DNA of 64,000 bases from an uncultured delta proteobacterium (GCA_963847445.1 CAWJZV010000007.1:1-64000); one strand, 5' to 3'. Shown: positions 30,638-58,491, counted from the stretch's first letter. A program made the numbers and translations. The notes: a model not told the origin generated them from the letters alone.

Positions 30638-30727
30638 CGAGGATGGAAGATCGAGGATGGAAGATTGAAAGAAAGACCTCCAAACCTCGTATTTCGTCTA
30701 TCGTCTATCCTTCATCCTCTATCCTCG
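30638..30727. repeat. Tandem-inverted 7-mer (GAGGATG/ATCCTC) element between nuoD and nuoE
   Basis: CGAGGATGGAAGATCGAGGATGGAAGAT ... TCTATCGTCTATCCTTCATCCTCTATCCTCG. Confidence 0.8.
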
Positions 30728-30738
30728 ACTATCCTAAT

Positions 30739-34234: not shown

Positions 34235-35598
34235 ATGGCTTACCAATCTGAACAAGGCAACTTCACCATCGCCCTCGCCGGCGATACCATGCTCACGCGC
34301 AAATTAACGCCCTTCACCGAGGAGCGTTTTCTCAGACTGCGCGAGATCCTGCGCGGCGCCGACGCCCGCTTCGCCAATCTCGAAGGCACGGTGCACACCT
34401 GGGACGAAGGGACACCGGGGATCACCCAGGGCACGTTCATGACCACGGACCCCAAGCTCCTCGAAGACTTGCAATGGCTCGGCATCAATCTGGTGTCCTG
34501 CGCCAACAACCACGCCTTCGACTACGGCGAAGACGGCGTGCTCGCCAACCTCAAGCATCTCGATGTCGCCGGCATGGTTCACGCCGGCACCGGGAAAAAT
34601 CTCGCCGAAGCGCGCGCGCCCGGTTATCTCGACACGCCCAACGGCCGAGTCGCCTTGGTCGCCACCACCGCGACCTTCAGACCCTGGAACCAAGCCGGCG
34701 AACAGCGCCCTGACTTGCGCGGCCGGCCCGGTATCAATCCGCTTGGGCTTCCAGACCGTCTACTACGTCGACGCCGCGGCCTTCGAACAATTGCAAGCGC
34801 ATCAGCCGCGAACTCGGCTTTGAAAAAAGCACCGAGCGGGCGCGCAAACATTTTTATAGCGACAAGGAACTCGCCAACGCCAACGCCGCCGAGTTGAGTC
34901 TGCTCGGCAATCGTTATGTCTTCGGCGAAGGTTTCTCCATCGCCACCGAAGCCAACCCGCGCGACCTGCAAGATAACTTACGCTGGATCCGCGAAGCGCG
35001 CCGCCAAGCCGACTGGCTCGTCGTCAGCGCTCATTGTCATGAATTTGGCGGCAGCAGTCTGCTGACGGCAAGCACGCGGGCGGAGCTGGAAGAGACCGCC
35101 GACTTCGTCACCAAGTTCGCTCACCAGGCGATCGACGAAGGCGCCGACATTTTCGTCGGCCACGGCTCGCACTTCCCGATGGGTGTGGAAATTTATAAGG
35201 GCAAACCGATCTTTTACAGCGTCGGCAATTTCGTCTTTCAAAACGAAACCGTCGGCTTCTTTCCCGCCGACGCCTACGAGCGCTTCGATCTCGATCTCAA
35301 GGCCACGCCGTCCGACTTCCTCGACGCCCGCACCAACGGCGGCAAAAAAGGCCATCCCAGCGATCCTGCCTATTGGGAAAACATGTTCCCGGTCTGCGAG
35401 TTCAGCAAGCAGAAATTGACCAGCATAAAAATCTACCCCATCGACCAAGGCTTCGGCCGGCCAAGGCCGCAACGCGGCCGCCCCGTGCTCGCCGAAGGCG
35501 AAGTGGCCAATCGGGTGATCGAGCGAGTGGTGCGCCTCTCGAAACGTTATGGGACCAAGGTGATGAATCAAGGCGGTGTTGGCGTGATCGAACCGTAG
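34235..35598 (+). CDS. CapA/PgsA family metallophosphoesterase, frameshifts at about 34750-34800
   Basis: LAGD, ANLEG, ANNHAFDYG, SAHCHE, GHGSH and FYSVGNF, across ORFs 34235 and 34894. Confidence 0.9.
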
Positions 35599-37016: not shown

Positions 37017-38485
37017 TCACAGCCCCTGGGCCGCGGCATTTCTTCCAGCCAGCCGCGAGAAAACCACATTGCGCGTCTGACCGGTGCAGGACGGATAGTT
37101 GTGAAAAAACAAACCGACGATGTCGCCGGAAGCGAATAGGCCGCGGATCGGATTGTTCGAGGTGTTGAGCACCTGGGCCTGGGTGTTGATCTGCAAGCCG
37201 CCGAAGGTGAACGTCACGCCGCCGGTAATCGCGTAGGCGAAGTAGGGCGGCTTGTCGAGGGTATCGGCCCAGTGGGATTTTTTCGGCGTGATGCCCTCGG
37301 TGCAGCGGCCGTCCAGTTTGGTCGCGTCGAACGGGATGTCTTTGCGGATCGCGCCGTTGAACTCGTCGATGGTCCGCTTGAGAATCATCGGCTCGATGCT
37401 GATTTTCTGCGCCAACTCTTCGATCGTGTGCGCTTCGATGGGATGGGAAAATTCGTAGTAGCGCTGGTTCAAAAGCCCCAACGCCTTCTGATCGTAGATT
37501 TGGTAGGCGATGGCACCCGGCTGCCCAAGCACCGCCCAACCGGTCTTGGCGTAGGTGTAGGAATGGCGCGCTTCGCCCTCGTCGAAAAAGCGCTGGCCGA
37601 GAGAATTGACGGTGATGCCGTAGGTGTAGCCGTAGCGATTGGCCTTGTTGCTGATTTCGACATCGGGAAAGGTCGCGTCGATCGGCGTCGCATGGGCGCC
37701 CTGCCAATGGCCCGCGGTTTTGGCGCCCATGTCGATCGCCATCATCAGCACTTCGCCGGTATCATGCTTGCTGCCGCGCACCTTCATCAGGTCGGCGTTG
37801 GGGCCGAGATAGCGCGCCCGCTTCTCCGCGCTCGCCTGAAATCCGCCGGCGCACAGAATCACCGAGTTGGCGCGAATTTCATACTCTTCATTGGGATCGG
37901 AGACACGCACACCCTCGATTCGCCGGTCGTTGCCGAGCAGCGCCGCAACCCGCGACTCGTAGCGCAGCTCGATGCCCATCTTGGTGGCGATCTCGCGCCA
38001 CTGCATGAGTTGATCCAGTCCGCCCTCAACGCCGCCGCGCGGATGGATCACCATCCCCGGTTCGAAGTAATATTTCCCGTCGATGATCACATAGCTGTCG
38101 ATGTCCCATTTGATGCCGACTTCGCGCATCCAATGGATCGCCGCGGTGGACTGTGTCACCAAGACCTCGGACAGTTCTTTGCTGATCCGTCCCTTGGTCA
38201 CCCGCTGCAGGTCGGCGTGAAACTGTTCCGCGGTGTAGGCTGGGATATGCAGCTTGGCGAAGAGCTCGTCGTCCATGTCCGGCAGGAACTTGCGTATCTC
38301 TTCGGGGCCGGAAAACACCCAGCGAAAACCGGTGTGCGAATAGCGCGCGTTGCCGCCAAACTCCGGCTCCGGCGCTTTCTCCAGCATCACGACTTGCGGC
38401 GCGCCGGCTTGCTTGGCCGCCACCGCCGCCTCAAAGGCGGCGCTGCCGCCGCCGACAACTACAACGGGATATTTTCAGTTCTCAC
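37017..38485 (-). CDS. FAD-dependent oxidoreductase, tricarballylate dehydrogenase TcuA-like, copy B
   Basis: VVVVGGGSAAFEAA, GGNARYS, ILCAGGFQA, GQRFFDEG, TFTFGGL and GLFFHNYP. GGAGG site and GTG at 38485, with an indel after codon 6. Confidence 0.85.
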
Positions 38486-38595
38486 GATTGCACCTCCATT
38501 CGGTGGAGCGCAGCGACACCCATCAAACCAACGCTCCCGAGAATTCTGGAATTTGGAATCTGTAATATGGAATTCGTGACGCCGCCCCCGCGGCG

Positions 38596-40064
38596 TCACA
38601 GCCCCTGCGCCGCCGCATTTCTGCCCGCCAAACGCGAGAACACCACGTTGCGCGTCTGTCCCGGTGCACGACGGATAATTGTGAAAGAACAAGCCGACGA
38701 TATCGCCGGAGGCGAACAGGCCGCGGATCGGATTACTCGAAGTATTTAACACCTGCGCCTGCGTATTGATCTGCAAGCCGCCGAAGGTAAAGGTCACCCC
38801 GCCGGTTATCGAAAACGCCCAGTAGGGCGGCTTGTCGATTGGACTAGCCCAGTTGGATTTTTTCGGCGTGATGCCTTCGGTGCATTTGCCGTCCAGTTTA
38901 GTCGCGTCGAAGACGACATCCTTGCGCGCCGCGTTGTTGAATTCCGTAACCGTGTGCTTGAGCACGGTGGGCTCGATGCCGATTTTGCCGGCCAGCTCGT
39001 CAATTGATTTCGCTTCTATGGGCGTGGAGAACTCGTAACGGTTGCCAAGCAGCGGAATCGTCTTCTGATCGTAGATTTGATACGCCAACGCGCCGGGTTG
39101 GCCGAGCACGGCCCAACCGGTCTTAGCGTAAGTATATGAATGGCGCGCTTCGCCTTCGTCGAAAAAGCGCTGTCCCAAAGTATTGACGGTGATGCTGTAC
39201 GGATAACCGTAACGATTGGCTTTGCTGCCGATCTCCACGTCGGGATAGGTCGAATCGATCGGCGTCGCGTGGGCGCCTTGCCAATGGCCGGCCGCCTTGG
39301 CGCCCATGGCCAAGGTCATCATCAGCACTTCGCCGGTGTCGTGCCGGCTGCCGCGCACCTTCATCAGATCGGCGTTGGGCGCCAAGATAGCGCGCGCGCA
39401 TTTCCGCATTCGCCTGAAAGCCGCCGGCGCAAAGAACGATTGACCCGCTTTTGATTTCGTATTCTTCGTTGGGATCGGAGACCACGACGCCTTCGATATG
39501 CCGGTCGTTGCCGAGTAACGCTTTGACCCGCGACTCGTAGCGCAGCTCGACGCCCATGCCCAGGGCGATCTCGCGCCATTGCCTAATTGGCCCAGTCCGC
39601 CGCCGACGCCGCCGACCGGATGGATCACCAATCCCGGCTCGAAATAATAACGGCCGTCGATCACCACGTGACTATCGATCTCCCACTTGATGCCCAACTC
39701 GCGCATCCAATGAATCGCCGCGTTGGACTGGCTCACCAGCACGTCGGCTAAAGTTCCTGATCGATGCGGCCGCGCGTGACCCGCTGCAAATCGGCGTGAA
39801 ACAGTTCCGCGGAATAGGCCGGCAAGTTGAGTTTCGCAAACATCGCGTCGTCGACATCCGGCAGAAACTGGCGGATCTCATCGGCGCCGGAAAACACCCA
39901 GCGAAAGCCGGTGTGCGAATAGCGCGCGTTGCCGCCGAACTCCGGCTCCGGCGCTTTTTCCAACATCACGACTTTCGGCGCGCCGGCTTGCTTGGCCGCC
40001 ACCGCCGCTTCAAAGGCGGCGCTGCCGCCGCCGACAACTACCACGGGATGTTTTCCGTTCTCAC
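38596..40064 (-). CDS. FAD-dependent oxidoreductase, TcuA-like, copy A, several frameshifts
   Basis: Same motifs as copy B, spread over ORFs 39748-40071, 39123-39557 and 38459-39742. The corrected end is ...AAAQGL* at 38596. Confidence 0.85.
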
Positions 40065-40113
40065 GGTGCAAAATTCTCCATCTTCGATGTCAATTATTAT
40101 AGCGAGTGAATGA

Positions 40114-45535: not shown

Positions 45536-46444
45536 ATGGCTGCAGAAATTCGTTACGGCGTCGAAACCATCGATCATATCGCGATCCCGGTGCGCGATCT
45601 GGCATTGAACCAGGCGTTCTACGTCGAAACTCTTGGGCTTAAATTCAAAACCACCAGGCGCAATCCCGACGGCAGCCCGCGCCAAACCTACGTGCTCGCC
45701 GGCGACAATATCATCGGCCTACATTTACCCGGCGTTAGCGCCGGCATTGCGCCGAGCGGCGCGCCGAGAATCGGTGTCAGCGTCAGCAGCGAGCGTTTCG
45801 CGCAGGTTGAAAACAATTTGCGCTTGGCCAAGTACCCGTTCACAGGTCCCGTCGAACATGCAACCGATGCGCCGCTCACCCGCTCGATTTATTTCGACGA
45901 TCCCGATGGCAACCATCTGGAATTCTGTCTGCGCCGCGCCGAACCGCGGACGGAATGTATCAGCCACACGGTCTTCGAAACCTGCAATAGGAAAAAGGCC
46001 GTGACATTTTACTCGGAAGTGCTCGGCACAGGCGCGCCCATCCGATGCGGCGAGGAAACCATGATGGCGACGCAAAACGGCCAAATGATCGGTCTCGTGG
46101 AAGTCGCGGAACTATCTGAGCGCAGCAAGAAACATGGCCGCGGCTGTCACATGGCCATGGACGTGCAGCAGGAAGATTTCGATTCCATGGTCGCTCTGGT
46201 CGAGCGCCATGGCGGCAAGAGTCAAGGCGACAAACGCGCCGACGATGGCCTGAGACCGGCAGGAGAGCGCAGCATTTATCTCTTCGATCCCGACAACAAT
46301 CGGCTGCAAATCACCGCCCACGCGCCCAATCAGAAAGCAGAACTACTCGACGACGAAGAAAAATGGCGCCGCATCGTCGCCAGCCGCAAAGAGCAAGGCA
46401 AAGGCCTCACCCGCTGGGAAAGCGGCGGGAAGAAACTCGTTTAG
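45536..46444 (+). CDS. Two-domain VOC family protein
   Basis: IDHIAIPVRDL and SIYFDDPDGNHLE, then CHMAM and SIYLFDPDNNRLQ. Confidence 0.85.
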   Translation: MAAEIRYGVETIDHIAIPVRDLALNQAFYVETLGLKFKTTRRNPDGSPRQTYVLAGDNIIGLHLPGVSAGIAPSGAPRIGVSVSSERFAQVENNLRLAKYPFTGPVEHATDAPLTRSIYFDDPDGNHLEFCLRRAEPRTECISHTVFETCNRKKAVTFYSEVLGTGAPIRCGEETMMATQNGQMIGLVEVAELSERSKKHGRGCHMAMDVQQEDFDSMVALVERHGGKSQGDKRADDGLRPAGERSIYLFDPDNNRLQITAHAPNQKAELLDDEEKWRRIVASRKEQGKGLTRWESGGKKLV

Positions 46445-46470
46445 GAAATTCTTACGCAATCCGGCCATCC

Positions 46471-46563
46471 CGTAGGATGGGTGGAGCGAAGCGATACCCA
46501 TCTCAATCAACTCCGCGTGTGACATCAACCGATGGGTTTCGTCGGAACTCAGCCCATCCTACG
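46471..46563. repeat. GTAG-type REP inverted pair
   Basis: CGTAGGATGGGTGGAGCGAAGCGATACCCATC ... GATGGGTTTCG...CCCATCCTACG. Partial copies at about 36895 and 38501. Confidence 0.85.
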
Positions 46564-46666
46564 AGGCTGCTTGGTAGTCATCATCGCGCTTAGCAAAAAA
46601 CGGCGTAGCTAGCTACGTCCTTCGGAAATTCTTCTTTGTGTTCTTTGCGGTGGAATCATCCGATTC

Positions 46667-47692
46667 CTAAGTCTTCGTCGCCAAGATCAGCGTCGTCCCC
46701 GGCAGAGTGTTGGCAATGTCGCCGTGGGTCGCAATTGAATTGAATCCCGCCATTTTCATCCAGTCGGAATATTGCGCCAGCGTCCAGCACTCGCCTTCCG
46801 GCGTATGCGTCAGCGTGTAAACCGAGAAACGCAACGCGAAAGTCGGTTCCGTGCGCTCTTCGTTGGGCACGAAGTCGTTGACGACGAAGATTCCGCCGGG
46901 TTTCAAGGCCGAAAAAGCTTTAGCAAATAATTCCTGATTGCCCTTGGGCGATTCGAAGCGGCAGAAGTTGCTGGCGAGAACGAGGTCGTAGTAGTTCGCT
47001 TCGATATTCGCGGTATGATGTTCGCCGTCGATATAACGAATCTTGCCTTCCAAGCCGCGCTCTCTATTAGCCTTCTGCGCCACCGCGTTGACGTTGGGCC
47101 AATCGAGTTGCGTGACCTGGGCGGTCGGATCGCGCGTGACGATGGTCATGCCGAATATGCTCGAACCGCCGGCCACATCGAGCACGCGCAAACCTTTGCG
47201 CTCGCTGCCGATTTTTAGAATATCGCACAGCGCTTTGGCCGCCGGTTCGGCGATGACGATGATGCCGAGCACGAGTTTTTCCCAAACTTGCAGCTCGGTG
47301 TTGGTATCCATTCGGCTGAGCGGCTTGCCGGTTTTGAGCGATTCTTTAAGATGGGCCATGCCATCCCACAATGCCAAGGCGACATGACGGAAATCACCGC
47401 AATAGGAAGATTTGCCCTTGACCAGAAACGCCTGCGCCGATGGTGTGAGAAAATACTTACCGTCGCGCTTTTCGATCAATGACAACGCCGGCAAGCTGTC
47501 GAGCACGATGCGCGTCGCGCGCGCGTCCGTGCCGGCTTCGCGGGCCACCGCTTCCGCGCTATCGAAACCTTTGTTGATCAGCGTGAAAAAATCGTACTCC
47601 AGCGCGGCGTCCAAGATTTGGCTGTTGGCAAAGTCGCCGAGTATCCGCATCAACGGACGGGGTGAGATTTCCTCTTGATTAGACTCGGCCAT
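46667..47692 (-). CDS. SAM-dependent methyltransferase, O-methyltransferase family with a dimerization domain
   Basis: N-terminal wHTH (AALEYDFFT...YFLTP), VLDVAGGS, LDWP and ALKPGG. ATG at 47692, 2 nt after the upstream stop. Confidence 0.9.
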   Translation of the reverse strand: MAESNQEEISPRPLMRILGDFANSQILDAALEYDFFTLINKGFDSAEAVAREAGTDARATRIVLDSLPALSLIEKRDGKYFLTPSAQAFLVKGKSSYCGDFRHVALALWDGMAHLKESLKTGKPLSRMDTNTELQVWEKLVLGIIVIAEPAAKALCDILKIGSERKGLRVLDVAGGSSIFGMTIVTRDPTAQVTQLDWPNVNAVAQKANRERGLEGKIRYIDGEHHTANIEANYYDLVLASNFCRFESPKGNQELFAKAFSALKPGGIFVVNDFVPNEERTEPTFALRFSVYTLTHTPEGECWTLAQYSDWMKMAGFNSIATHGDIANTLPGTTLILATKT

Positions 47693-47694
47693 GT

Positions 47695-48489
47695 TTATTC
47701 TTTGTACAGCCCTTCCTTCTTGATCTGCTGATACACACCCTCGAAGAACCAGGCGAAGTAGGACGTGCCCATGCGCATGCAATACTCCAGGTTGAAGCCC
47801 GGACGGGTCTCGGCCTTGCCTTCGATGAGCATGTTCTTCAAAACCATCCAGTCAAGATCGGCATGCGCCATGATGCCGTCATGTTCTTCCAAATCGGCCT
47901 TGGCGTGGACACGAAAATAGACGATCTTTTCTTCGGGGAAATTATAAACCTTGCGCAGCGTCGTACCGAAGAAGCGCGCCCAATGACCGACGGCTTCCTC
48001 GACGCAAAACGACGCCCACCACTCGACCATGGTGCCCTCGTAGAGCACACCGCGGTAGTACTCCAGGAACGCGCGGCACTCGGCGAGCATTTCGTATTCG
48101 ACCATCTCATCGTCGCTGAGTCCGAAGTTGCGTCCCTGTTCGAGGACGATCTGAATGTGGCCGGGCGGCTTGGGATGAATCATCTCATCGGCCACATGGG
48201 CGGCGAAATGCTTTTGCAGCTCCGGATGGCGCTTAAAAAAAGGCAAATGGCGTTGGTAAGCGACACCGTGGAAATTATTGATCTCGGCGACAAAGCCGTG
48301 CCAGTTCTGCCAAAAGATTTTGATCGCCTCCATCGGCAGCGTGCCGTTGCCCATGTCGGTGTGGAAACGACCTTTGATCAGCCAGCGGTCGGCTATGTCG
48401 AGTAAATATTTCTTTAAGTCCGCGATCACTGCGTCGGCTTCCTGCGGCGAAAGTTTTTTTCCGGAAAAATCCTGTCTGCCTAGTCCCAT
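47695..48489 (-). CDS. Heme-oxygenase-like diiron (PqqC/CADD/TenA superfamily) redox enzyme
   Basis: Helical protein with ADEM...PPGH, CVEE and YFRVHAKADLEEH, fitting the E/H..E..H-xxx-D..H ligand pattern. Confidence 0.75.
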   Translation of the reverse strand: MGLGRQDFSGKKLSPQEADAVIADLKKYLLDIADRWLIKGRFHTDMGNGTLPMEAIKIFWQNWHGFVAEINNFHGVAYQRHLPFFKRHPELQKHFAAHVADEMIHPKPPGHIQIVLEQGRNFGLSDDEMVEYEMLAECRAFLEYYRGVLYEGTMVEWWASFCVEEAVGHWARFFGTTLRKVYNFPEEKIVYFRVHAKADLEEHDGIMAHADLDWMVLKNMLIEGKAETRPGFNLEYCMRMGTSYFAWFFEGVYQQIKKEGLYKE

Positions 48490-48546
48490 AATTCCCTCCT
48501 TACTTTAGCTCTGCCGATACCAATCTTTCCCGATTTCTGTTTCCGA

Positions 48547-48616
48547 CGTTGAAGCTTTGAACGCTTGCCTTCGATAAACTCAGGCCCTGAGCTTGCCGAA
48601 GGGAACCTTGAACGGA
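48547..48616. repeat. TTGAAC units flanking a CCTTCG..CTCAGG/CCTGAG..CGAAGG palindrome
   Basis: CCTTCGATAAACTCAGGCCCTGAGCTTGCCGAAGG. Confidence 0.7.
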
Positions 48617-48617
48617 C

Positions 48618-50102
48618 CTAATAGAGCGCCCCCGGATTGAGAATATTATTCGGATCGACCAATTGTTTGATCTCTTTGACGACATCGTAAAGATTGCCGA
48701 GTCGGTTATAGGGCATCGGCCCCTTGGTGCTCAGAGTCGGGGCGGTCCAAACCACGCCGCGTTCGTTACTGAACTGTGCCACCATGCCCATCCACTTGCG
48801 CAGCCGGCCGACATCTTCGTCGTCGTAGGGATTGTAGAAAGTGAAATATTCTTCTTTGATCGCCAGGTCACGGGTGACGTAGCTATCATGCTGCGGCGAG
48901 TGCTCGGCGTCCCAGATGCCGCACTCGCGCTTGGCGGCTTCGTCGAGATCGTACATTTCTTTGAGGAATCGCAGCGGATACATCTTCGAGGTTACCGCGA
49001 ACATGCCGGTGTGGCGCACCACCGTACCACACCAACCGTCCGGTCCCATGACATGCCAGTCGGGCCAGCCATGCAGACCCAGCTCCTGCGCCTTCGCCCC
49101 CATCGCTTTGTCGGCGATCTCCGGCACGTCGACGCCGCCGGCGCTCTCATAAATGCGCCGCATGCGCTTTTCTTTGAACGCCAGCTCGTCCGCGTCACGC
49201 GCCATGACAACGGTTTTTAGGAAAAACCAGCCGTCGTCGGGAATGTTGTTTTTGTCGTACAGCCCCTCTGCCATCGGCCAGTGATACTGCCAGCGGTCGG
49301 TGAAGTGGATGTCGTAGACAACTTCGCCTCGGACTAATTCAACCAGGGAATCCTGCACCTGTTGCAGCTGATCGCGGCGAAACACGTAGCAGTAATCATG
49401 CAGCCATTCGCGCTGGCATTGAATCGCGCGTAGACAAACTTTGCTGATGATCCCCATGGAGCCGGCGGCGAGGGTAAACAGACCCAACAGATCCGGCAGG
49501 TGAATCCATTTTTGAAACGGCCCGAAGGTCGTGCCTTGATTGGCCAGCGCACCCAAGCGAATGGTTTCACCGTTGGCGAGAATGACTTCCAAGCCGAGCA
49601 CCATATCGGCGATCCAGCCGTAGCGTGTCATGCCATAGCCGATACCGCCTTTGTTGATCATCGCACCGATAACCACCGCCGGCCCGTAGGTGCCAAAGTT
49701 GGGCAGCATCAATCCATCCTGGCGCAGCGCATGATGAATCGCGTACACACTGGCACCGCCCTCGGCAATCACGTACTGCATCGGCGAATTTACTTCGAGG
49801 ATTTTGTCCATGCCCAGCATGTCGAGCAAGACGCCGCCCTTGAGCGGCGAGCTGATGCCCATGCCGACGCCGCCCTTGGCGACTATGGGAATCTTATGCT
49901 CGTTGGCGAATTTCAAAATGTCGGCAACCTTGTGATTGCCTTGGGCGTCGGACTCTATACGCACGATCACGTCCGGCAACGCCCGATAGGCGCCGTAAGC
50001 CAGAGTATGCTGATAGTTGATCTTGTCTATCGGGTTCGTCGAAATCCGCCGCGGGCCGACGATGTCGGTCAGCTTGGCGATGATCTCGTCGAGGGAAAGC
50101 AT
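48618..50102 (-). CDS. FAD-binding oxidoreductase, VAO/PCMH (GlcD-like) family
   Basis: PDVIVR, IPIVAKGG, GGVLLD, LGLEVILANG, GSMGIISK and C-terminal KQLVDPNNILNPG. Confidence 0.9.
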   Translation of the reverse strand: MLSLDEIIAKLTDIVGPRRISTNPIDKINYQHTLAYGAYRALPDVIVRIESDAQGNHKVADILKFANEHKIPIVAKGGVGMGISSPLKGGVLLDMLGMDKILEVNSPMQYVIAEGGASVYAIHHALRQDGLMLPNFGTYGPAVVIGAMINKGGIGYGMTRYGWIADMVLGLEVILANGETIRLGALANQGTTFGPFQKWIHLPDLLGLFTLAAGSMGIISKVCLRAIQCQREWLHDYCYVFRRDQLQQVQDSLVELVRGEVVYDIHFTDRWQYHWPMAEGLYDKNNIPDDGWFFLKTVVMARDADELAFKEKRMRRIYESAGGVDVPEIADKAMGAKAQELGLHGWPDWHVMGPDGWCGTVVRHTGMFAVTSKMYPLRFLKEMYDLDEAAKRECGIWDAEHSPQHDSYVTRDLAIKEEYFTFYNPYDDEDVGRLRKWMGMVAQFSNERGVVWTAPTLSTKGPMPYNRLGNLYDVVKEIKQLVDPNNILNPGALY

Positions 50103-50110
50103 GGGGAATC

Positions 50111-50225
50111 AATTGCAAAATGGAAAATGGTAAAATGGAAAATTTAGGATTCGGATATAGATTACGCAGAGTTTTCCCTGAGAAATTGTTATCCGGCATT
50201 TTCAATTCTCAATTACCATTTTCAA
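50111..50225. repeat. Tandem-inverted AAAATGG/CCATTTT-type element
   Basis: AAAATGGAAAATGGTAAAATGGAAAAT ... ATTTTCAATTCTCAATTACCATTTTCAA. Confidence 0.75.
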
Positions 50226-51006
50226 CTTATTCAGAGTCTGCAGATGACTGCCGCCGGTAATGAGAATATGGCTGCCGGTCAGCATGCTCGCCTCATCGCC
50301 GGCGAGAAATGCGATCGCCCCGGCGACATCTTCCGGATAGAGATGCTTTTTCAGCGGCCGGGTTTCTTTGACTCGCTCGCGAAACGCCTCCGGCATGATC
50401 ATCGAAGCATCGGTCAGCGTGAACGCTGGAGTTACCACATTGACGGCGATCCCCAGCGGGCCGAGCTCAATCGCCATCGTATTGGCCATCGATTCCAAGC
50501 GCCGACTTGGCCGCCGCGTAGGCGCCCATGCGCGGCAGCGGTTGCTGCGCCAAGCGGGTGCTGACAACGATGATCTTGCCGGCCTTTCTCTCTTTCATAT
50601 CCGGCAAGCAGGCTTGCACACAGTGATAAAACGCCGACAGTTCATGGTCGATCGCCTGATGAAACTTTTCCCAGGCGATTTCATGGAGCGGGCTAACTTG
50701 AAATGGAAAGTAAGCATTATTGACCAGCACGTCGATGGCGCCGAGTTTATCTTTGACGGCGTTGACCATCGAATCGATCTGCACCCGCTGCGTGACATCG
50801 GCCTGAAAGATCATGCCGCGGGCGCCGGCGGCTTCCACTTGGCCAAGAACCTTTTGCGCCGCTTCCTGGTTTTGATGGTAATTGACGACCACCGCCGCGC
50901 CGCCCTGGGCTAGTCGAATCGCCGCCGCTGCGCCGATGCCCCGGCTCGCGCCGGTAACCAGAGCGATTTTGCCATGAAGTGTGGGGAGCTTTTTCTCTTC
51001 TGCCAT
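50202..51006 (-). CDS. SDR family (FabG-like) oxidoreductase, frameshift near 50500
   Basis: TGASRGIG, VLVNNA and YAAAKS. The C-terminus is ELGPLGIAVN...PEDVAGAI. Confidence 0.9.
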
Positions 51007-51019
51007 GGCTCGGCCAGCA

Positions 51020-52502
51020 CTAGATCGCGACCTTATCTTCCGCCGCGCCCTTTTCGTATTTAGCGGCGTTGTTTTTAAACGATTCGAACTTCATCCGCAC
51101 GTAAGGCGAGGTGTAGCCATTCAAGATGCGCTCAATGCGGCCCGGCTTGCTGTAAAAAGACTGAAAGGCCCAGCCCGTCAACTCACCCAACTGCTGGCGC
51201 GTCAGGTGCTTAGTCGGCATGACGCTATGCTCCAAGTCATAGAGACTCAGATTGTCGACTTCGATGATGTTGTTCTTCACCGCCGCTTTATAGATCGGCG
51301 AGCCGGGGATCGGATTGAGCACCTGGATCATGACGATGTCTGGATCGATCTCGTCGACCGCCTTGGCGCGCTGGCGGATTTTGGCTTCGTCGTCTTCCCA
51401 GAAGCCGTTGAGATAGGTCGAAATTGTCGAAATATCGTTCTTGCGCAGGAACTGAATTAGTTCTTTCAATTCCTTGACACCGACTTTCATCGTTCCCTTG
51501 CGCGCTTCGGCGATCTCTTCGTCCGTGCCGCCGTCGATGCCGATCAACACTTGATACAAGCCGACTTTGCGCAGCCGCGGCACCAGGTCCATGTCGCGAA
51601 TCAAGTTCTGCGCCCGGCTGAGCATGAACCAGCTCATGTCCAGCTTTTTTTGCTCCAGCGCTTCGACCAAGTCAACCATCTTCTGCCGGTCGGAGTTGAA
51701 GTCGTCGTCCATGAAAGTCAGAGCGCTTAACACCGTAAGTCTTGTTGAGCAGTTCCATTTCATCAGCGACTCGCTTGCCGCCTTTAGTGCGGTGCGAACT
51801 GAAATCCCGTGGATTGCGCTGGTCGACCAACCACCACTCGTAGCAAAAATGACAAGCCCCCTCGCATCCCCGAGAAGTCACCGATTCGTTGTAATTGGGT
51901 ATCACCGAATAGCCATAATACTTGTCCATCGGAAACAGATCGTAGGCTGGCAGGGGAAGTTCATCGAGATTGGCAATGACTGGCCGCGCCGGGGTCAGCA
52001 CGACCTCGCCATTCTTCCGGTAGGCCAAGCCCTTGATGCCGCTGAAATCAGGCGCAGGTTTTTTCAGTTCCTCCAACAACTCCCCAACCGCATGTTCATT
52101 GTCGGCAAACACCCCGACAATCGCGAAGTCGAGTTGCGGATTTTCGGTCATAATCTTGTGCGGCACCGCGGTGTACATCAAACCGCCGCCGATGGTGACG
52201 GTTTGGGGAGCGAATTCTTTGATCTTTTGCATCGCCGCATGAAAGCGGTTGAGCGTCGCCGCGCCGCCCGCCGCCGCGATCATGGCGCCAAAGAACACCG
52301 CATCCGGCCGTTGCCGCTTCACCTCATCGATCATCTGGTCGTCGTTCAACCCCAGCGCGCGGCAGTCGAGGACCGCCACCTCCGCGGCTTTTTTCTCGCG
52401 AATAAAAGCCGCGACCTGAGCGTGCAATGAGTTGACGGCCAAATGACGGTCGCCCCACGGCGCCCAATTGCCCATGGGTGGGGTAATAAAGAGAAGTTTC
52501 AT
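51020..52502 (-). CDS. Cobalamin-dependent (class B) radical SAM enzyme, frameshift near 51725
   Basis: N-terminal B12-binding domain (LFITPP, VLDC, TIGGG), LDELPLPAYDL, SRGCEGACHFC (CxxxCxxC), FMDDDF and PIPGSPIY. Confidence 0.92.
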
Positions 52503-52537
52503 GCTATCTCCTGGTACCGGCGGGATTAGTTTCAATT

Positions 52538-52566
52538 AAAGTATTTAATAGGTTAATGATTGTCAA
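52538..52566 (-). promoter_or_regulatory. Putative sigma70 promoter of the radical SAM operon
   Basis: TTGACA, a 17-nt spacer, then TACTTT on the minus strand. AGGAG site before ATG 52502. Confidence 0.65.
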
Positions 52567-52643
52567 GGTGAGCCGCAGAGAGTATCGGCGACGAACGGTT
52601 AAAACTCGATAGAAATATTAGCTAACCGGAGCTCACTTATCAG

Positions 52644-52672
52644 TTGACAACATCCGACCCTTTTGGTACTGC
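52644..52672 (+). promoter_or_regulatory. Putative sigma70 promoter of the ABC permease gene
   Basis: TTGACA, a 17-nt spacer, then TACTGC. Confidence 0.45.
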
Positions 52673-52730
52673 TGCCGACACTAAGCGTCGGTAACAAGAA
52701 CTTAATAGAAACCCCACAAAGGAGACCCTT

Positions 52731-53573
52731 ATGGCTCAAGGTGCGCAAGAAGAACAATTAATGGATATACGCGTCGCCGAAGCGTCGTCTGCGTATAAGT
52801 TTTATCTCAATCAGGAAAAAAAGATCCTCGGCGGTACCGCGGTGATTCTCTTCCTGTTGACTTGGGAGACCATCGGCAACTGGGCGGGGCTGATTAACCC
52901 GATGTTCATGAGCGCGCCGTCGCTGGTGGGAAAGGCGGCCTGGCAGATGTTTGCCTCGGGGGAGATTTACAACGATCTCTATGTTAGCGGCATTGAGTTC
53001 TTCTGGGGCTACCTGCTGTCGGTCATTTTTGCGATCCCATTCGGCATCGCCATCGGCTGGTACAAGCGTTTCGCGTACGTTTGCGATCCCTTTGTCAACG
53101 CCATGAATGCCACACCTCGCGTTGCCTTGTTACCACTGGTCATCATCTGGCTCGGCATCGGCATCTTGTCCAAGGTCGGCATCATCTTTTTGGGCGCGGT
53201 GTTTCCGCTGCTGATCAACACCCGTGACGGCGTCAAAACCACTCCGGCCAACTTGCTCACTGCCGCCAGAAGCTTTGGCGCATCGGAATGGCAGATCTTC
53301 AAATCCGTCGTATTGCCGTCCACCGTGCCGTTCATTCTGACCGGCTTACGCCTTGCCGTCGGCCGCGCACTCATCGGTGTCATGGTCGGCGAGCTTTACG
53401 CCGCAACCGCCGGTATCGGCTTTATGATTACGGTCGCCGGCGCGACCTTCCAAACCGATAAGGTGTTCGTCGGCGTCTTGATTTTCGCCATCAGTGGTAT
53501 GACCCTGACCGAAGTCATCGACCGTTACGAGCGTCGGTTCGACAAGTGGCGTCCCAAAGTTGGTGCTGAATAA
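52731..53573 (+). CDS. ABC transporter permease, NitT/TauT (SsuC-like)
   Basis: PRVALLPL, EAA-like loop TAARSFGASEWQIFKSVVLP and GELYAATAGIG. Confidence 0.92.
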   Translation: MAQGAQEEQLMDIRVAEASSAYKFYLNQEKKILGGTAVILFLLTWETIGNWAGLINPMFMSAPSLVGKAAWQMFASGEIYNDLYVSGIEFFWGYLLSVIFAIPFGIAIGWYKRFAYVCDPFVNAMNATPRVALLPLVIIWLGIGILSKVGIIFLGAVFPLLINTRDGVKTTPANLLTAARSFGASEWQIFKSVVLPSTVPFILTGLRLAVGRALIGVMVGELYAATAGIGFMITVAGATFQTDKVFVGVLIFAISGMTLTEVIDRYERRFDKWRPKVGAE

Positions 53574-53753: not shown

Positions 53754-56461
53754 ATGCGCAGACTCGGCGGCGTGACAATATTAGTATTCGTTCTTGTTGT
53801 AATGTTCTTTCGCCAGGCGATCGGGCTTTATGTCGACTGGCTGTGGTTCCAGGACGTTGGTTACAGCCCGCTCTTTGGAACGATCTTGACTTATAAGTTC
53901 GCACTTGGCGCCGTTGCCGGCACTCTTCTGGCGTTGCTCATTTATGTCAATCTGAAGATCGCCTCCTCGACATCGGGCGGATTTCGCTACTCCAGCGCGG
54001 AAAACATTATCGAGCTGCCGCCACCGGAGCTGATCGATCCAATTCTCAAGCGGCTGCTTCTCCCCGGCGCCCTGCTGGTCGGCCTGATGGCTGCACCCCA
54101 AGGGGCGGCCCATTGGGAACAATTCTCGCTGTTTGTCAATTCGGTATCGTTCAATTTGCAAGATCCCCAGTTCGGCCGCGATGTTGGTTTTTATGTGTTT
54201 GTTTTGCCCTGGCTGCGCATTGTCTATCACTGGGCGATTTTCGCCATCGGTGTCACCGCCGTTGCCAGCGCCGCTGTCTACCTGGTCTATCGTGGCATTG
54301 AGTACACTGCACGCGGCCTTTTTCTCGGCGAACGCGCGCGCAGCCATCTGCTGATCCTGTTGGGCGTGTTTCTGTTGATCAAAGCCTGCGGCTACTATCT
54401 CGAGGCTTTCGATCTGTTGCATTCGCCGCGCGGCGTTTCCTTCGGCGCGAGCTATGCAGACATCTATGGCACTCTCCCGGCGCTCCGCGTGCTGACGTTT
54501 CTGGCGCTCATTGCCGCGGCGCTCTGCTTTGCGCAGATCGCCCGCACCGGTTATAAGTTCGTCTTCCTCGGCGTCGGCGCCTTGGTGGCGGTCCACTTAT
54601 TGGGTCTCAATGCCTATCCGGCGCTGCTGCAGCGCTTCCGTGTCACGCCCAATGAAATCGAGGCGGAACGTTCGTTTATCGAGCGCACCATCAAATTCAC
54701 CCGGCTCGCCTTCGGCCTGGATAAAATTGAAACCAAGGAGTTTCCCGCTGAGGAGCAGTTAACCGCCGCCGACCTGAAGCGCAATGAATCGACCATCAAT
54801 AATATCCGCCTCTGGGATCATCGGCCGCTCCTGACCAGCTACGCCCAGCTCCAGGAGATCCGGCCTTATTACAAGTTCATCGATGTCGACAATGACCGCT
54901 ATATCATCGACGGCACCTACCGCCAGGTGATGTTGTCCGCCCGCGAGCTGTCACATCGCCATTTGCAAAGTCAAAACTGGATCAACGAGCATCTGACATT
55001 CACCCATGGCCATGGCGTGGTCTTTGGACCGGTGAATCAGGTGACCTCCAGTGGTCAGCCCGAGTTTTTCATCAAAGATATTCCGCCGCTGACGACCACT
55101 TCGCTGCAAGATCACCCGCCCCGAGATCTACTACGGCGAGCTCGCCAATGAATATGTTTTAGTGCGGACCAAGTCGCAGGAATTGGACTATCCTGCCGGC
55201 GATCAGAATATTTACACGACCTATCAAGGCAAGGGCGGCGTGCCGATCGGCAGCTTCTGGCGCAAGTTGGTTTTCGCGGCGCACCACGCGTCGATGCGAA
55301 TCTTGTTATCGCAGGATCTCACCAGCGAAAGCCGGATACTTTTCCATCAGAAGATTCAGGAGCGGGTAAAGAAAATCGCGCCGTTTATTACCTTCGACCC
55401 TGACGCCTATATCGTCATCGCCCAAGGCGGCAGGTTATTCTGGATCATTGACGGCTATACCAATTCGGCCCGTTTTCCCTATTCCGCACCGCTGAGCCGG
55501 CAAGGGATGAATTATATTCGCAACTCGGTCAAGGCGGTGGTCGACGCTTACAACGGCACGGTGGAATTTTATCTGAGCGATCCAGCGGATCCGATCATTC
55601 AGTCCTTCGCCAAGATCTTTCCGCAAGTGTTTAAACCCCTCGAAACCATGCCCGAGGATCTGCGCGCCCATGTGCGTTATCCCCAGGATCTCTTCACGAT
55701 CCAGGCCCATGTCTACGCCACCTACCATATGCAGGACCCTCAGGTGTTTTTTAACAAGGAGGATCTCCTGAGCATCCCGCGGCGCACCATGGAGGGCCGC
55801 GAGCGCGAAATGGAGCCCTACTACACGATCATGCGCCTGCCGGGGGAGGAGAAGGAAGAATTCATCCTGCTCTTACCGTTCACGCCGAATAAACGCGACA
55901 ACATGCGCTCCTGGCTGGCGGCGCGCAGCGATGGCAAAAATTACGGCAAGTTAACCGCGCTGGAATTTCCCAAAGCGAAATTGGTCTATGGCCCCAAACA
56001 GATCGATGCGCGCATCGACCAAGATACCATCATCTCCCAACAACTGACGCTGTGGAGCCAGCGCGGCTCGCAGGTGCTCCGCGGCAGCCTTGCTCGCCAT
56101 CCCCATCGAAAAGTCGTTGCTCTACGTGCAGCCGCTCTATCTGGCCGCGGAGCAAGGCTCATTGCCGGAATTGAAGCGGGTGATTGGTCGCCTTCGGCAA
56201 CCGCATCGCCATGGAAGAAACGCTCGACCAAGCCCTGCAGCGCATCTTTGGCGCCAAGCCGGCGGCGGACGCCAGCGCACCAGCCCGCCAGTGCCGCGGC
56301 AGTGGCCACGCCCGTCAAAGGCGATCACATCGTTGGCCCGCCAGGCGTTGGATCATTTCCAGCGCTCCCAGGAACTACTCAAGCAAGGCAACTGGGCCGG
56401 CTACGGCGAAGAGCTGAAAAAAGTCGAGGACCTGCTCAAGGAAATGCAAAAGAGCCGTTAG
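53754..56461 (+). CDS. UPF0182 family membrane protein, frameshifts at about 55115 and 56090-56330
   Basis: DWLWFQDVGY, DPQFGRDVGFY, NIRLWD, NYIRNSVKAVVDAYNG and GNWAGYGEE. Confidence 0.92.
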
Positions 56462-58491
56462 AACGCGGCAACATGCGAGCAACGACCAGCGCAGCGTTCA
56501 CCGATTGTGCGGATTAGCATGATAGCGGCCACTGACGAGCAGTCTTCGGCGCTGCGCAGGATCGCTAAGCCGTCGTCGGATTCGCTGCTGCCTGCGTCGG
56601 CGCTCATCGCTATCTCTGCCCATGGCTTGCCATGGCCAGCGCGCTCATACGCCAGCCGGTCGCCGGATTCGCGCAGGACAATCAGCTCTCGGTCCGTGAC
56701 GATGCCGTAGCGCTTCTTGTTGTAAATCACCATGGCGACTGGATCTTCGGCTTGCGGCTTGAGCACATCGCGGCCGAAAAATGCGCTGCGATATGCGCCG
56801 CCGACGATGCCCATGATGGTCGGCGGTAAATCCATCTGACTGGTTACGCGGCAATACGCGCCGGCAGCGACATGTTTCGGCGCGAGGAACAGCGCCGGGA
56901 CGATGTACTCGTCGATGGGAATAAGTTCGTTGCCGCGCAAGTGCACGCCGTGATCGCCGACAAAGACAAATAACGTATCGTCGAAGTACGGCGCCTGGCG
57001 CGCCGCGCGAATGAATTGACCGATGCAGTAGTCGGCGTAGAGAAAGTTATTGAGCTCATTGAGCTCAAAGCCGGGCGGCAGCTTGGTATCGGCGGCCAGT
57101 GGGTTGATTTTCCCCGCCGGGAATTGCCAGGGCGAGTGCAGCGATACTGTCAGTAGGGTGGCAAAAAACGGTTGGCGCGCTTCGTGGTAGCGACGAAATT
57201 CGCTATCGGCTCGGGCAAATAAATCTTCATCCGACACACCCCAGGGACTTTTGTAGAGCGGCGCAGAGAAATCTTTTTCTTCGATGAAACGGTCAAAGCC
57301 GTTACCGAGAAAGAATGCCAGCATGTGATCGAAAATCCCCTGGCCGCCGTAGAGAAAACTCGTCGCATAACCGCGCCCACGCAGCACACTCGCCAAGGTA
57401 AAAAAGTTTTGCCGTGCCTGCGGCCGCTTGACCACCCCTTCGCCAGGAAGCGGCGGGAACGAACAGACCGCGGCTTCCAGTCCTTGGATGGTTCGCTCTC
57501 CAGTGGCGTAGCAGCGTTCCAGCAATAAGCCCTCTCGCGCAAGCTTGTCGAGTTCCGGCGAAAGCGCCGGCACTCCGCCAAGACATCCGGTCAACCGTCC
57601 GGTAAAACTCTCCATCACGACTAACACCACGTTGAGCGGCGCGTCCTTCGCCGCATTGGTAATTCGCCGCACCAGAGGATTAGGCCCATCGTCGGCGAAT
57701 TGACCGTCCTGGGCTAAAACTCTGCGCGAACGCGCTATCGCTTCATCGGCCGCTGGCAGTTGGGTCACGCTCTTGAGCGTGGCAAATTCATTTTTAGCGC
57801 GCTGACTCCATTCGTAGAGCAGATTGAAAATCCCGCAACAGGCGATCTCGTTGGCGATCCGATTGGTCGTAAACGACGCCAGACTCGGATTGAGCGGCCG
57901 GTGGTCGAAGGTGCCGCGGCTGGCGAAACCGACGAATAGCAGCCAGAACAATGTCATTGCGCGATCCGACAACCACAGGTAATCGCTTCTGACTGGGTTG
58001 CCCGGCGCCAGTGGAGCGATAAACTGCACCGCAATCACGGCCAACCAAGCGCCGATCACGCTTAGCAAGAAAATGCGAACGAGCGGATAGGCTTTGGCGA
58101 CGGTCTTGAGCACCTCGCGATCGGCGCCATGTTCGAATACCAGATAGTTGGGCCGGAAATCATAGAAGCGAAAGAAGAAAATACCGGCGATCTCGGCAAA
58201 AAATATCGTGAAGTAAAGAACGCTGAGGTAGAGCCCAAAGAAAAACTGACTTGAAATGAGGAAATCACCAGGCAACGTCAGCGCGGCAACCACCAGCGGC
58301 AGGCAGCCTCGGCTGACGATCACGGCGTCCAAACGGAAACCGATCCAAAATAGTTTTAACTTTTGCCGGCCGGTCAGCTCTTTCACGTCGGCGCGCCGTT
58401 CCCAATAGAGCCACAGGCGAAACCCCGTCAAAATGAGCGCGGCAACAAGGCAAATGGCGACGGCTAACGTCGTGCGCGGCAGTTCAAACAT
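56458..58491 (-). CDS. LTA synthase (LtaS/MdoB-like) family membrane phosphotransferase, alkaline-phosphatase fold
   Basis: About 5 N-terminal TM segments, NVVLVVMESF, GERTIQG (candidate Thr nucleophile), WGVSD, SLHSPW, YAD and GDHG. The 3' end may be frameshifted. Confidence 0.9.
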   Translation of the reverse strand: MFELPRTTLAVAICLVAALILTGFRLWLYWERRADVKELTGRQKLKLFWIGFRLDAVIVSRGCLPLVVAALTLPGDFLISSQFFFGLYLSVLYFTIFFAEIAGIFFFRFYDFRPNYLVFEHGADREVLKTVAKAYPLVRIFLLSVIGAWLAVIAVQFIAPLAPGNPVRSDYLWLSDRAMTLFWLLFVGFASRGTFDHRPLNPSLASFTTNRIANEIACCGIFNLLYEWSQRAKNEFATLKSVTQLPAADEAIARSRRVLAQDGQFADDGPNPLVRRITNAAKDAPLNVVLVVMESFTGRLTGCLGGVPALSPELDKLAREGLLLERCYATGERTIQGLEAAVCSFPPLPGEGVVKRPQARQNFFTLASVLRGRGYATSFLYGGQGIFDHMLAFFLGNGFDRFIEEKDFSAPLYKSPWGVSDEDLFARADSEFRRYHEARQPFFATLLTVSLHSPWQFPAGKINPLAADTKLPPGFELNELNNFLYADYCIGQFIRAARQAPYFDDTLFVFVGDHGVHLRGNELIPIDEYIVPALFLAPKHVAAGAYCRVTSQMDLPPTIMGIVGGAYRSAFFGRDVLKPQAEDPVAMVIYNKKRYGIVTDRELIVLRESGDRLAYERAGHGKPWAEIAMSADAGSSESDDGLAILRSAEDCSSVAAIMLIRTIGERCAGRCSHVAAF

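Follow-up and report, generated by a model that had tools for sequence, protein, structure and literature searches.

A conserved five-gene operon encoding a B12-binding radical SAM protein and a heme-oxygenase-like two-metal enzyme in one family of uncultured Binatia

Introduction

What would a bacterium make, or break down, with a B12-binding radical SAM protein, a short-chain dehydrogenase/reductase (SDR), an FAD-linked oxidase, a heme-oxygenase-like two-metal enzyme (HDO), and a methyltransferase encoded one after another? The question is raised by a locus in an uncultured Binatia bacterium, where we confirmed a set of five enzyme genes, all on the minus strand, at 52502..46667 of the window (i.e. 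the whole 64-kb stretch of DNA analysed here). A preliminary description of this DNA had called the operon an orphan and had not recognised the combination, and we likewise find no match to a characterised pathway: all five proteins score below cut-off against the curated equivalog families of NCBIfam, and a literature search returned no paper on the five-gene operon. With no curated cut-off attained, homology does not assign any of the steps. The gene families, their conservation and order, the promoter, and the taxonomic range of two of the genes are established below; every chemical step, the substrate class, and the biosynthetic direction are what we infer.

Organization of the locus

In operon order, the genes are separated by gaps of 13, 99, 128, and 2 nt, the first and last of which had been given in the preliminary description and were read from the sequence with the same values. 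Upstream of the first gene lies a promoter block (52531..52570, minus strand) composed of the -35 hexamer TTGACA (52566..52561), a spacer of 17 nt, and the -10 hexamer TACTTT (52543..52538). This promoter had been called near-consensus; its TTGACA-17-TACTTT arrangement is indeed present, but the -35 hexamer alone is consensus, the -10 agreeing with TATAAT at only 3/6 positions, and a generic consensus promoter scan made no call at the site because the -10 is too divergent. The block is nonetheless kept in 49/49 related loci whose sequence extends to this position, with TTGACA equidistant and the spacer conserved, a degree of conservation that chance would not yield. When the 7.2-Mb genome was scanned with a weight matrix derived from 48 loci, the operon promoter was the sole hit scoring more than 18 bits.

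The two longer gaps had been described as filled with repeats, which holds only in part. The 128-nt gap between the oxidase and HDO genes contains a 44-nt REP-like hairpin element (48563..48606, minus strand), recognized by its genome copies and stem-loop fold, of which ten further copies exist in the genome at 91-100% identity and at which, in contig comparison, all four runs show a summed depth that is very high, together with loose ends. The 99-nt spacer between the SDR and oxidase genes (50103..50201, minus strand) has no second copy anywhere in the genome and contains only a 3.7-copy heptamer (50117-50143; TRF); it also varies between strains, with contigs from one study (X4) skipping 86-136 nt there. 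Beyond the last gene, a scan and fold identified a terminator-like hairpin with a T run (46595..46617, minus strand) approximately 50 nt past the last stop codon, which is a plausible operon end only, such sites being no commoner in the region than in shuffles. The scan of ORFs throughout the window revealed no NRPS or PKS, as stated previously, and no peptide-maturation family either.

Integrity of the radical SAM and SDR genes

In the deposited sequence the reading frame is broken in two genes, which the preliminary description had not listed among its observations. The radical SAM gene (51020..52502, minus strand; Pfam PF02310 and PF04055) is split into ORFs at 51672..52535 and 51020..51763 by a 1-nt insertion near 51725, as judged against the long-read MAG L064, and the classical SDR gene (50202..51006, minus strand; adh_short/adh_short_C2) into ORFs at 50467..51006 and 50202..50567 by a 1-nt insertion near 50495-50498. 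Were both frameshifts genuine mutations, the operon in this genome would be a decaying pseudogene cluster, which we consider distinctly unlikely. Among relatives, the radical SAM gene is in frame in 51/51 cases and the SDR halves in 61/61. The extra base at 51725 is absent from the contigs of three other studies (X1, X4, and X5), and that at 50495/50498 from the contigs of two (X1 and X4), though these contigs represent related strains that are not provably of the same population. What speaks against decay is the pattern of damage: at least four other genes within the same 64 kb are likewise split (Pur_DNA_glyco, PGA_cap, FAD_binding_2, and UPF0182), a third 1-nt insertion sits in the 13-nt spacer, L064 carries a different set of indels, which affect its HDO and oxidase genes, and the split genes display no other substitution damage, their halves being 94% identical to intact orthologues. 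The two frameshifts are thus probably assembly errors and the operon only apparently broken, and because of this the operon repair urged in the preliminary description is probably needless.

Conservation and taxonomic range

The five genes, previously grouped from this one sequence, keep their order in most related loci, and the lack of co-occurrence that the preliminary description had named as a refutation is therefore not what we observe. Co-occurrence in genome loci was found for the radical SAM gene in 50/53, the SDR gene in 59/59, the oxidase gene in 61/61, and the methyltransferase gene in 48/50, with all five together in 40 of the 44 fully assessable loci. Independent metagenome loci give corresponding values, in gene order, of 47/47 (radical SAM), 69/69 (SDR), 68/68 (HDO), and 52/57 (methyltransferase), and all five genes together in 32/37. 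The operon is single copy and its synteny is conserved.

Taxonomic range was defined by the two genes searched genome-wide, those for the oxidase and the radical SAM protein. The oxidase is present in 56 of the 63 genomes of one GTDB family (f1, class Binatia) and in 0 of 337 genomes from 19 other Binatia families, and the radical SAM protein occurs in 58/63 genomes of f1 as well as in 3/4 genomes of a sister family (f113). Among the matches listed, the latter protein forms 120 clusters that are 81-94% identical to the query orthologue. However, 7 of the 53 f1 genomes holding both genes have the radical SAM gene away from the other operon genes, so that the five proteins do not necessarily function together. 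In one variant locus (G790), the radical SAM and methyltransferase genes travel together. A weak hint of operon expression comes from a metatranscriptome run (X16) in which 16 contigs map to the operon; such RNA contigs may stem from library-carried DNA.

To these observations we attach a reading with roughly even chances of being correct: a single functional, vertically inherited operon, with the same gene order and promoter throughout, belongs to one family of uncultured soil Binatia and builds or remodels a small carboxylate-bearing molecule.

The radical SAM protein

The intact orthologue of the radical SAM protein has 493 amino acids and an invariant CX3CX2C motif, with C213, C217, and C220 found in 11/11 aligned sequences. 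Its best curated model is that of the non-methylating enzyme BchE (TIGR02026), with which it shares an N-terminal B12-binding domain and a radical SAM core with CX3CX2C, at a score (163.9 bits) far under the cut-off of 481.35. Unlike bchE, the operon gene has no chlorophyll-gene neighbours, and its partners are instead an SDR, a flavoprotein, an HDO, and a methyltransferase. Two further systems are similar in logic only. The pairing of enzyme types resembles BzaC and BzaD, the O-methyltransferase and B12 radical SAM methylase of anaerobic benzimidazole synthesis, and the position of the radical SAM and SDR genes 13 nt apart resembles AprD4/AprD3, a radical SAM dehydratase with its reductase; scores against BzaD (80.2 bits, cut-off 450) and AprD4 (49.1 bits, cut-off 500) both fall short.

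The rank of BchE among the NCBIfam models could suggest a remnant or variant of bacteriochlorophyll or tetrapyrrole tailoring, in which a BchE-like cyclase is paired with a BchU/CrtF-like methyltransferase. JGI names 24 of the 120 orthologue clusters among the matches listed as anaerobic Mg-protoporphyrin IX monomethyl ester cyclase and Murphy et al. 2021 (PMC8262859) report bchE and bchU homologues in Binatota. The same paper, however, gives bchM and later steps as missing, and further results oppose this origin: no protein of the genome matches BchE at its cut-off (the top score is 110 bits), the operon methyltransferase scores 26 bits against a BchU/CrtF cut-off of 276, the best BchU-like match of the genome maps elsewhere and is likewise below cut-off, and the scanned ORFs of the window include no other bch family. 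We regard this origin as extremely improbable.

The SDR and the FAD-linked oxidase

The intact SDR orthologue (257 aa) has a best NCBIfam match of 200 bits, for which the cut-off is 215. The oxidase or dehydrogenase (48618..50102, minus strand; FAD_binding_4, PF01565, 99 bits) belongs to the VAO/GlcD superfamily and shares, with both PCMH/vanillyl-alcohol oxidase and GlcD/D-lactate dehydrogenase, the FAD_binding_4 domain and a C-terminal tail of the DPNNILNPG type. Its PDB matches are confined to the FAD domain (PCMH, 68.9 bits; LctD, 63.5; glycolate oxidase, 61.7). VAO/PCMH flavoproteins that oxidise 4-substituted phenols carry a cap domain with a phenolate-binding Tyr/Tyr/Arg triad; the cap domain of the operon oxidase is divergent and fails to align with PCMH, and the structure model of the oxidase is poor (pLDDT 54). 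Only 36 representatives were retrieved at E<=1e-30 among 1.84 billion. Unlike D-lactate dehydrogenase, the operon oxidase apparently lacks a GEHG-type stretch, as read from the alignment, and, unlike GlcD, whose curated score it misses (84.3 bits, cut-off 567.9), it has no GlcF-like partner, no CCG iron-sulfur protein being encoded in the window operon. Such a partner is present in a variant locus (L059) and alongside oxidase homologues of approximately 30% identity.

In that variant locus, the oxidase and iron-sulfur genes are followed by genes for a PlsC-type acyltransferase and an alpha/beta hydrolase, which would suit an operon that tailors a lipid (ether lipid, hopanoid, or branched alkyl chain). 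The HpnJ, HpnR, and "ladderane" B12 radical SAM models match the operon protein weakly (77-120 bits), and the fatty-acid enzyme UndA is among the fold matches of the HDO. Those three scores, however, are all far below cut-off, AGPS is absent from the PDB matches of the oxidase, no lipid-synthesis gene is found at the locus in the window, and the five proteins appear soluble from their family assignments. A lipid product is accordingly very unlikely in our estimation.

The methyltransferase and the HDO

The last gene (46667..47692, minus strand) encodes a SAM methyltransferase of the COMT/DsyB fold whose matches to Methyltransf_2 (PF00891, 41.3 bits) and the dimerisation domain (PF08100, 38.7 bits) both exceed the gathering scores. 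It aligns over its full length, dimerisation domain and Rossmann fold included, with the MTHB S-methyltransferase DsyB (93.6 bits) and with MfnG (76.5 bits), the top PDB match being 2r3s (127 bits), yet these scores are low and a key residue differs. In hydroxyl O-methyltransferases of the COMT fold, the general base is a His within an LH(D/N)W-type motif, whereas 47 of 48 operon orthologues have Arg at this position, in the motif NFCRF; the same alignment column holds His in 2r3s, MfnG, and 3mcz, and Ser in DsyB.

The HDO (47695..48489, minus strand; PF14518/PF03070) was modelled with high confidence (AF2, pLDDT 93.7), and its best Foldseek match is CADD (1rcw; TM 0.71/0.86). It shares with CADD/CT610, the 4-aminobenzoate synthase of Chlamydia (1rcw, 8va9), the seven-helix heme-oxygenase-like fold and the six ligands of the two-metal site, which align to the invariant residues E102, H111, E164, H195, D199, and H203. 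The two proteins are nevertheless only 15% identical, and the HDO has His43 and Phe174 in place of CADD Tyr27 and Lys152, which we take to be the sacrificial residue and the amine donor, respectively. A CADD-type 4-aminobenzoate synthase was rejected on the grounds that these substrate residues are absent and that the family score is missed (TIGR04305, 25.1 bits, cut-off 200). PqqC, the name JGI assigns to some orthologues, was also rejected: the NCBIfam scan lists only TIGR04305, the locus has no pqq genes, and the fold search places PqqC behind CADD. A further difference from CADD is an extra invariant Glu69, located 33 residues N-terminal to the first core ligand in what the AF2 model predicts to be an unbroken helix (residues 53-80). 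The N-oxygenating HDOs of the SznF type, with which Glu69 was compared, have an additional carboxylate as their seventh ligand, which lies on auxiliary helix 2 and is accompanied by a beta-turn insertion (PMC7848743).

Proposed function and substrate

We propose the following chemistry. The HDO would use O2 at its two-metal site for substrate hydroxylation, or for side-chain cleavage or decarboxylation, as in other HDOs; the flavoprotein and SDR would interconvert alcohol and carbonyl groups; the radical SAM protein would attack an unactivated carbon, acting by C-methylation or by a BchE-like oxidation; and the methyltransferase would cap a nucleophile while its active-site Arg binds an anionic group. 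As substrate, an aromatic acid or a 2-hydroxy or 2-oxo acid (aromatic or aliphatic) is probable. This is suggested by UbiD and carboxylate-transporter neighbours of orthologues and paralogues: the f113 radical SAM orthologue has a UbiD decarboxylase gene 9 nt downstream, a paralogue of 45% identity adjoins a TRAP transporter and an Amidohydro_2 protein, a second HDO clade (clade B) has UbiD genes in 7/17 loci in addition to NMT1 binding proteins, DHDPS-family proteins, and bicupins, and two UbiD ORFs occur at a distance of 3-6 kb in the variant locus L059. Further hints of a carboxylate or aromatic substrate come from the GlcF-like partner of L059 and of distant oxidase homologues, and from the Arg that replaces His in the methyltransferase.

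The UbiD and transporter genes belong to these other loci and not to the window operon.

Such neighbours could also indicate a catabolic or detoxifying role, in which the HDO, flavoprotein, and SDR oxidise an imported aromatic or hydroxy acid (e.g. lignin- or humic-derived) that the radical SAM protein and methyltransferase modify before it enters central pathways. Relatives of the radical SAM protein and clade B HDOs adjoin UbiD, Amidohydro_2, TRAP/TTT transporters, and NMT1 binding proteins, and other genomic features are in keeping with this role: the genome holds approximately 25 HDO paralogues, a divergent ABC permease upstream is conserved in 33 loci, and genes of the glyoxalase/dioxygenase, cupin, and dienelactone hydrolase types abound in the window. 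However, SAM-consuming methyl transfer is rare in catabolism, the scan of window ORFs revealed neither a regulator nor a binding protein nor an ATPase at the locus, and a substrate-specific catabolic island would not usually be so highly conserved, single copy, and equipped with a promoter fixed across the family. We therefore consider catabolism a real but doubtful possibility. Points in favour of biosynthesis are that two of the enzymes consume SAM, that the operon lacks a regulator and a full transporter, and that it occurs once per genome with its synteny conserved.

The preliminary description had pointed to a typically O2-sensitive radical enzyme being paired with a typically O2-using diiron enzyme; this paradox is a weak argument because aerobic actinomycetes also employ B12 radical SAM enzymes. 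As a bolder extension of the biosynthetic reading, and one that we rate as fairly unlikely, the operon might convert an aromatic or hydroxy acid into a small cofactor, redox mediator, or signal specific to the lineage, with a new subfamily in each of three enzyme classes. By analogy with BchE and AcsF in chlorophyll synthesis, the radical SAM protein on one side, and the HDO and flavoprotein on the other, might then serve as O2-independent and O2-dependent routes to one oxidised intermediate. Under this hypothesis, "bchE" calls based on the operon radical SAM protein would be misannotations.

Conservation and range of the operon

The five-gene operon at 46667-52566 on the minus strand is real, conserved and uncharacterised, and is made of new subfamilies within known enzyme classes; a full-text literature search returned no paper on this gene set. 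The operon encodes, all on the minus strand, a B12-binding radical SAM enzyme (52502..51020; PF02310, PF04055), a classical SDR (51006..50202; adh_short), a FAD_binding_4 flavoprotein, here also called the oxidase (50102..48618; PF01565), a heme-oxygenase-like "iron-containing redox enzyme" or HDO (48489..47695; PF14518/PF03070) and a methyltransferase with a dimerisation domain (47692..46667; PF00891, PF08100). The preliminary description was accurate in giving two intergenic gaps as 13 and 2 nt and the other two as longer; in order, the four measure 13, 99, 128 and 2 nt. ORFs scanned across the window yielded no NRPS or PKS family, in line with that description, and no peptide-maturation family. 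A promoter, TTGACA-17 nt-TACTTT, lies 36 nt upstream of the first start codon, and a hairpin with a T run follows the last stop codon by ~50 nt. An Rfam scan of 46300-52900 at E<=0.1 found no RNA family, and thus no cobalamin or SAM riboswitch.

HDO relatives numbered 358 among species-representative genomes, and the best 80 of these 358 loci were fetched. At 63 of the 80, mostly titled as "Candidatus Binatia" or "delta proteobacterium" MAGs, the HDO is 67-99% identical to that of the window; the other 17 form a second HDO clade (43-55% identity) in which the remaining four genes are missing. The five genes, which the preliminary description had taken as one set, do co-occur elsewhere: counting only loci whose contig extends far enough, among the 63 genome loci and 80 independent metagenome loci, all five stand in order at 40/44 and 32/37, respectively. 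Taken singly, the radical SAM gene is present at 50/53 genome and 47/47 metagenome loci, the SDR gene at 59/59 and 69/69, and the methyltransferase gene at 48/50 and 52/57; the oxidase gene, the search anchor for metagenome loci, was found at 61/61 genome loci, and the HDO gene, the anchor for genome loci, at 68/68 metagenome loci. The promoter block, including its spacer, is kept in 49/49 loci that extend upstream, and the DNA beyond it is unrelated. When the 7.2-Mb genome was searched for a regulon with a matrix built from this block, no further site emerged.

Whole-genome searches across 401 genomes of class Binatia placed the oxidase in 56/63 genomes of the window's GTDB family and in 0/337 genomes of 19 other families, and the radical SAM orthologue in 58/63 genomes of the family and 3/4 of a sister family. 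These family tallies include three genomes flagged as unpublished (G728, G738 and G780), without which they become 53/60 for the oxidase and 56/60 for the radical SAM enzyme. Both genes occur in 53 family genomes, adjacent in 46 and unlinked in 7 by hand count. Sampling the phylum more widely added nothing but distant homologues of the oxidase (~30% identity), in 5 genomes.

In three genomes the radical SAM gene is not adjacent to the others, and a 75-76% identical orthologue lies elsewhere. In one of them, G790, this gene is accompanied by the methyltransferase gene (locus L115), and the other locus of that genome (L059) encodes, in order, HDO, SDR, oxidase, GlcF-like CCG/4Fe-4S protein, alpha/beta hydrolase and PlsC-type acyltransferase; in the remaining two, an EamA-type transporter gene precedes the radical SAM gene. 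Given these split arrangements, the operon looks like a fusion of two putative modules, one of radical SAM enzyme and methyltransferase and the other of HDO, SDR and flavoprotein.

Small peptide genes within the spacers were ruled out, since spacer length ranges from ~15 to >300 nt among loci. A 44-nt hairpin-forming dispersed repeat (REP-like) lies at window position 48563-48606; it recurs at 10 other places in the genome (e.g. C44:34737, C12:13833 and C23:70234) and is far commoner than the flanking genes in public metagenome contigs.

Frameshifts in the window copy

The radical SAM and SDR genes are each cut into two ORFs in the window. Compared with the closest relative, L064, another long-read MAG, each gene carries one inserted base, and a third inserted base lies inside the 13-nt spacer. 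Four lines of evidence make it very probable that the inserted bases are assembly errors. The two halves share one frame in related loci (51/51 for radical SAM, 61/61 for SDR). Logan contigs from runs of three studies (X1, X4 and X5) are all one base shorter at 51725, and those covering the SDR site (X1 and X4) have one base fewer at 50495 or 50498. Other genes of the window are likewise split, each into two adjacent ORFs matching consecutive parts of a single Pfam profile, and in L064 the HDO and oxidase genes contain indels that differ from those of the window. The Logan contigs come from near-identical strains and not provably from the source sample, so the frameshifts may instead be real mutations. 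More broadly, many 1-nt indels seem to be present in the window assembly, and such indels in long-read MAGs of this group imitate pseudogenes, which serves as a data-quality warning. The four other split genes are located at 14927-15588 (Pur_DNA_glyco), 34235-35598 (PGA_cap), 38459-40071 (FAD_binding_2) and 53754-56517 (UPF0182).

The radical SAM enzyme and the BchE label

The CX3CX2C motif of the radical SAM enzyme is invariant. Its best curated model is BchE, the anaerobic Mg-protoporphyrin IX monomethyl ester cyclase, at 163.9 bits against a cut-off of 481; a P-methyltransferase family (126 bits), HpnJ (120), BzaD (80) and AprD4 (49) follow, and no curated model comes close to its own cut-off. 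AprD4 is also the best solved relative, at 38.6 bits. A tetrapyrrole pathway is very unlikely. JGI names this cyclase for 24/120 radical SAM orthologue clusters among the matches listed. For Binatota, Murphy et al. (2021; PMC8262859) describe homologues of bchE, bchQ/R and bchU but a pathway that lacks bchM and the steps after it. In view of the JGI naming, the operon is a likely source of such bchE calls, although other B12 radical SAM genes in the genome reach comparable sub-threshold scores. That pipelines call this gene BchE warrants an annotation warning.

A second pairing of radical SAM and HDO genes in the window's own genome (G000, C24:55635-60749; loci L083 and L105) was set aside as unrelated, being divergent and having other partners (MR_MLE and bicupin). 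There, a frameshift-split B12 radical SAM gene is divergent from three genes, which encode an enolase-superfamily protein, another HDO and a bicupin.

The HDO, methyltransferase, flavoprotein and SDR

The HDO model is confident (pLDDT 93.7), and its best fold match is the Chlamydia HDO, CADD (TM 0.71/0.86), followed by PqqC, TenA, UndA and BesC. In a profile search, the six metal ligands of CADD align with the invariant E102, H111, E164, H195, D199 and H203, whereas the positions of CADD Tyr27 and Lys152 are occupied by His and Phe. An additional invariant residue, Glu69, might be a seventh metal ligand by analogy with the N-oxygenases described in PMC7848743. A Protein Atlas look-up with the HDO returned its own family only. 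The genome shows a large HDO expansion, with ~25 PF14518 and 21 PF03070 matches (e.g. C18:84474, C16:59047, C24:58921 and C46:202456), several of which adjoin cupins, UbiD or NMT1 binding proteins.

Among solved proteins, the methyltransferase is closest to 2r3s (127 bits), which is an uncharacterised protein from Nostoc, then to DsyB (93.6) and MfnG (76.5). It has Arg at the column that holds His in 2r3s, MfnG and 3mcz and Ser in DsyB; in hydroxyl O-methyltransferases, this His serves as the general base. The Arg is found in 47/48 orthologues, the exception being a frameshifted MAG. As the second-best solved relative, DsyB brought DMSP synthesis into consideration; the scheme leaves the radical SAM enzyme and HDO without explanation and was retained only as an improbable idea.

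The flavoprotein aligns to solved proteins over the FAD domain and last 17 residues only, with p-cresol methylhydroxylase, LctD, glycolate oxidase and D-lactate dehydrogenase each at 59-69 bits. It belongs to a small family, with just 36 representatives out of 1.84 billion at E<=1e-30. P0203, P0204 and P0206 are relatives that share 43-47% identity with it; a metagenome scan with P0203 gave no matches, one with an alignment (A3) retrieved the same operon only, and a Protein Atlas look-up returned only its own family. A structure model from 22 close orthologues reached pLDDT 54 and was left out. In other Desulfobacterota-type genomes, genes for a CCG iron-sulfur protein and SDRs come after the ~30% identical homologues, an arrangement known from GlcD/GlcF-type 2-hydroxy-acid dehydrogenases. 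At one locus (L111; G045:C17:30000-48000), a distant homologue with a CCG partner and two SDRs adjoins a corrinoid protein and a URO-D-like methyltransferase, which recalls O-demethylase systems. The operon's own SDR is generic; its best model scores 200 bits, below the cut-off of 215.

Substrate and pathway

Hints at the substrate come from relatives of the operon genes. A UbiD-family decarboxylase gene follows the sister-family radical SAM orthologue at a distance of 9 nt (L198). A 45% identical radical SAM paralogue has as neighbours a TRAP transporter and a protein of Amidohydro_2, a family that includes non-oxidative aromatic-acid decarboxylases. UbiD genes also occur at 7/17 loci of the second HDO clade, whose neighbours further include NMT1 binding proteins, DHDPS-family proteins, a second HDO and bicupins, and at L059 two UbiD ORFs lie at a distance of 3-6 kb. 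Characterised HDOs, according to published abstracts, act mostly on amino or fatty acids. Together, the UbiD, TRAP and NMT1 contexts, the GlcD-like ancestry of the flavoprotein, the methyltransferase Arg and these HDO substrates point to a substrate carrying a carboxylate, an aromatic or 2-hydroxy/2-oxo acid, as judged from relatives rather than from this operon.

The mechanism that we favour, at about even odds, is a functional pathway in which the HDO would use O2 to hydroxylate the substrate or cleave its side chain, the flavoprotein and SDR would act on an alcohol/carbonyl pair, an unactivated carbon would be altered by the radical SAM enzyme and the product would be capped by the methyltransferase. 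A catabolic role is quite possible, given the ~25 HDO paralogues in the genome, the catabolic-looking neighbourhood in the window and a conserved divergent ABC permease; against it stand two SAM-using enzymes, the lack of a regulator, a copy number of one, a promoter that does not vary and very strong conservation, for which reasons we lean towards biosynthesis. With five soluble-looking enzymes, a single promoter and many intact natural variants, the operon is a tractable orphan pathway, in a widespread soil bacterial group of which we know no cultured member. It would add subfamilies to the class B radical SAM enzymes, the heme-oxygenase-like two-metal oxidases and the VAO-type flavoproteins, all three under active study by enzymologists.

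Runs with matching contigs derive from biofilter, soil and sediment. One of these, the metatranscriptome X16, has short contigs over 15/30 bins of the operon, at most a hint of expression. Elsewhere in the window, what looks like a complete set of NADH:quinone oxidoreductase (complex I) genes stands in a row at 20262-31929 on the minus strand, and a tandem FAD_binding_2 gene pair at 37017-40071, with ~80-85% DNA identity across ~1.5 kb, is a recent tandem duplication.
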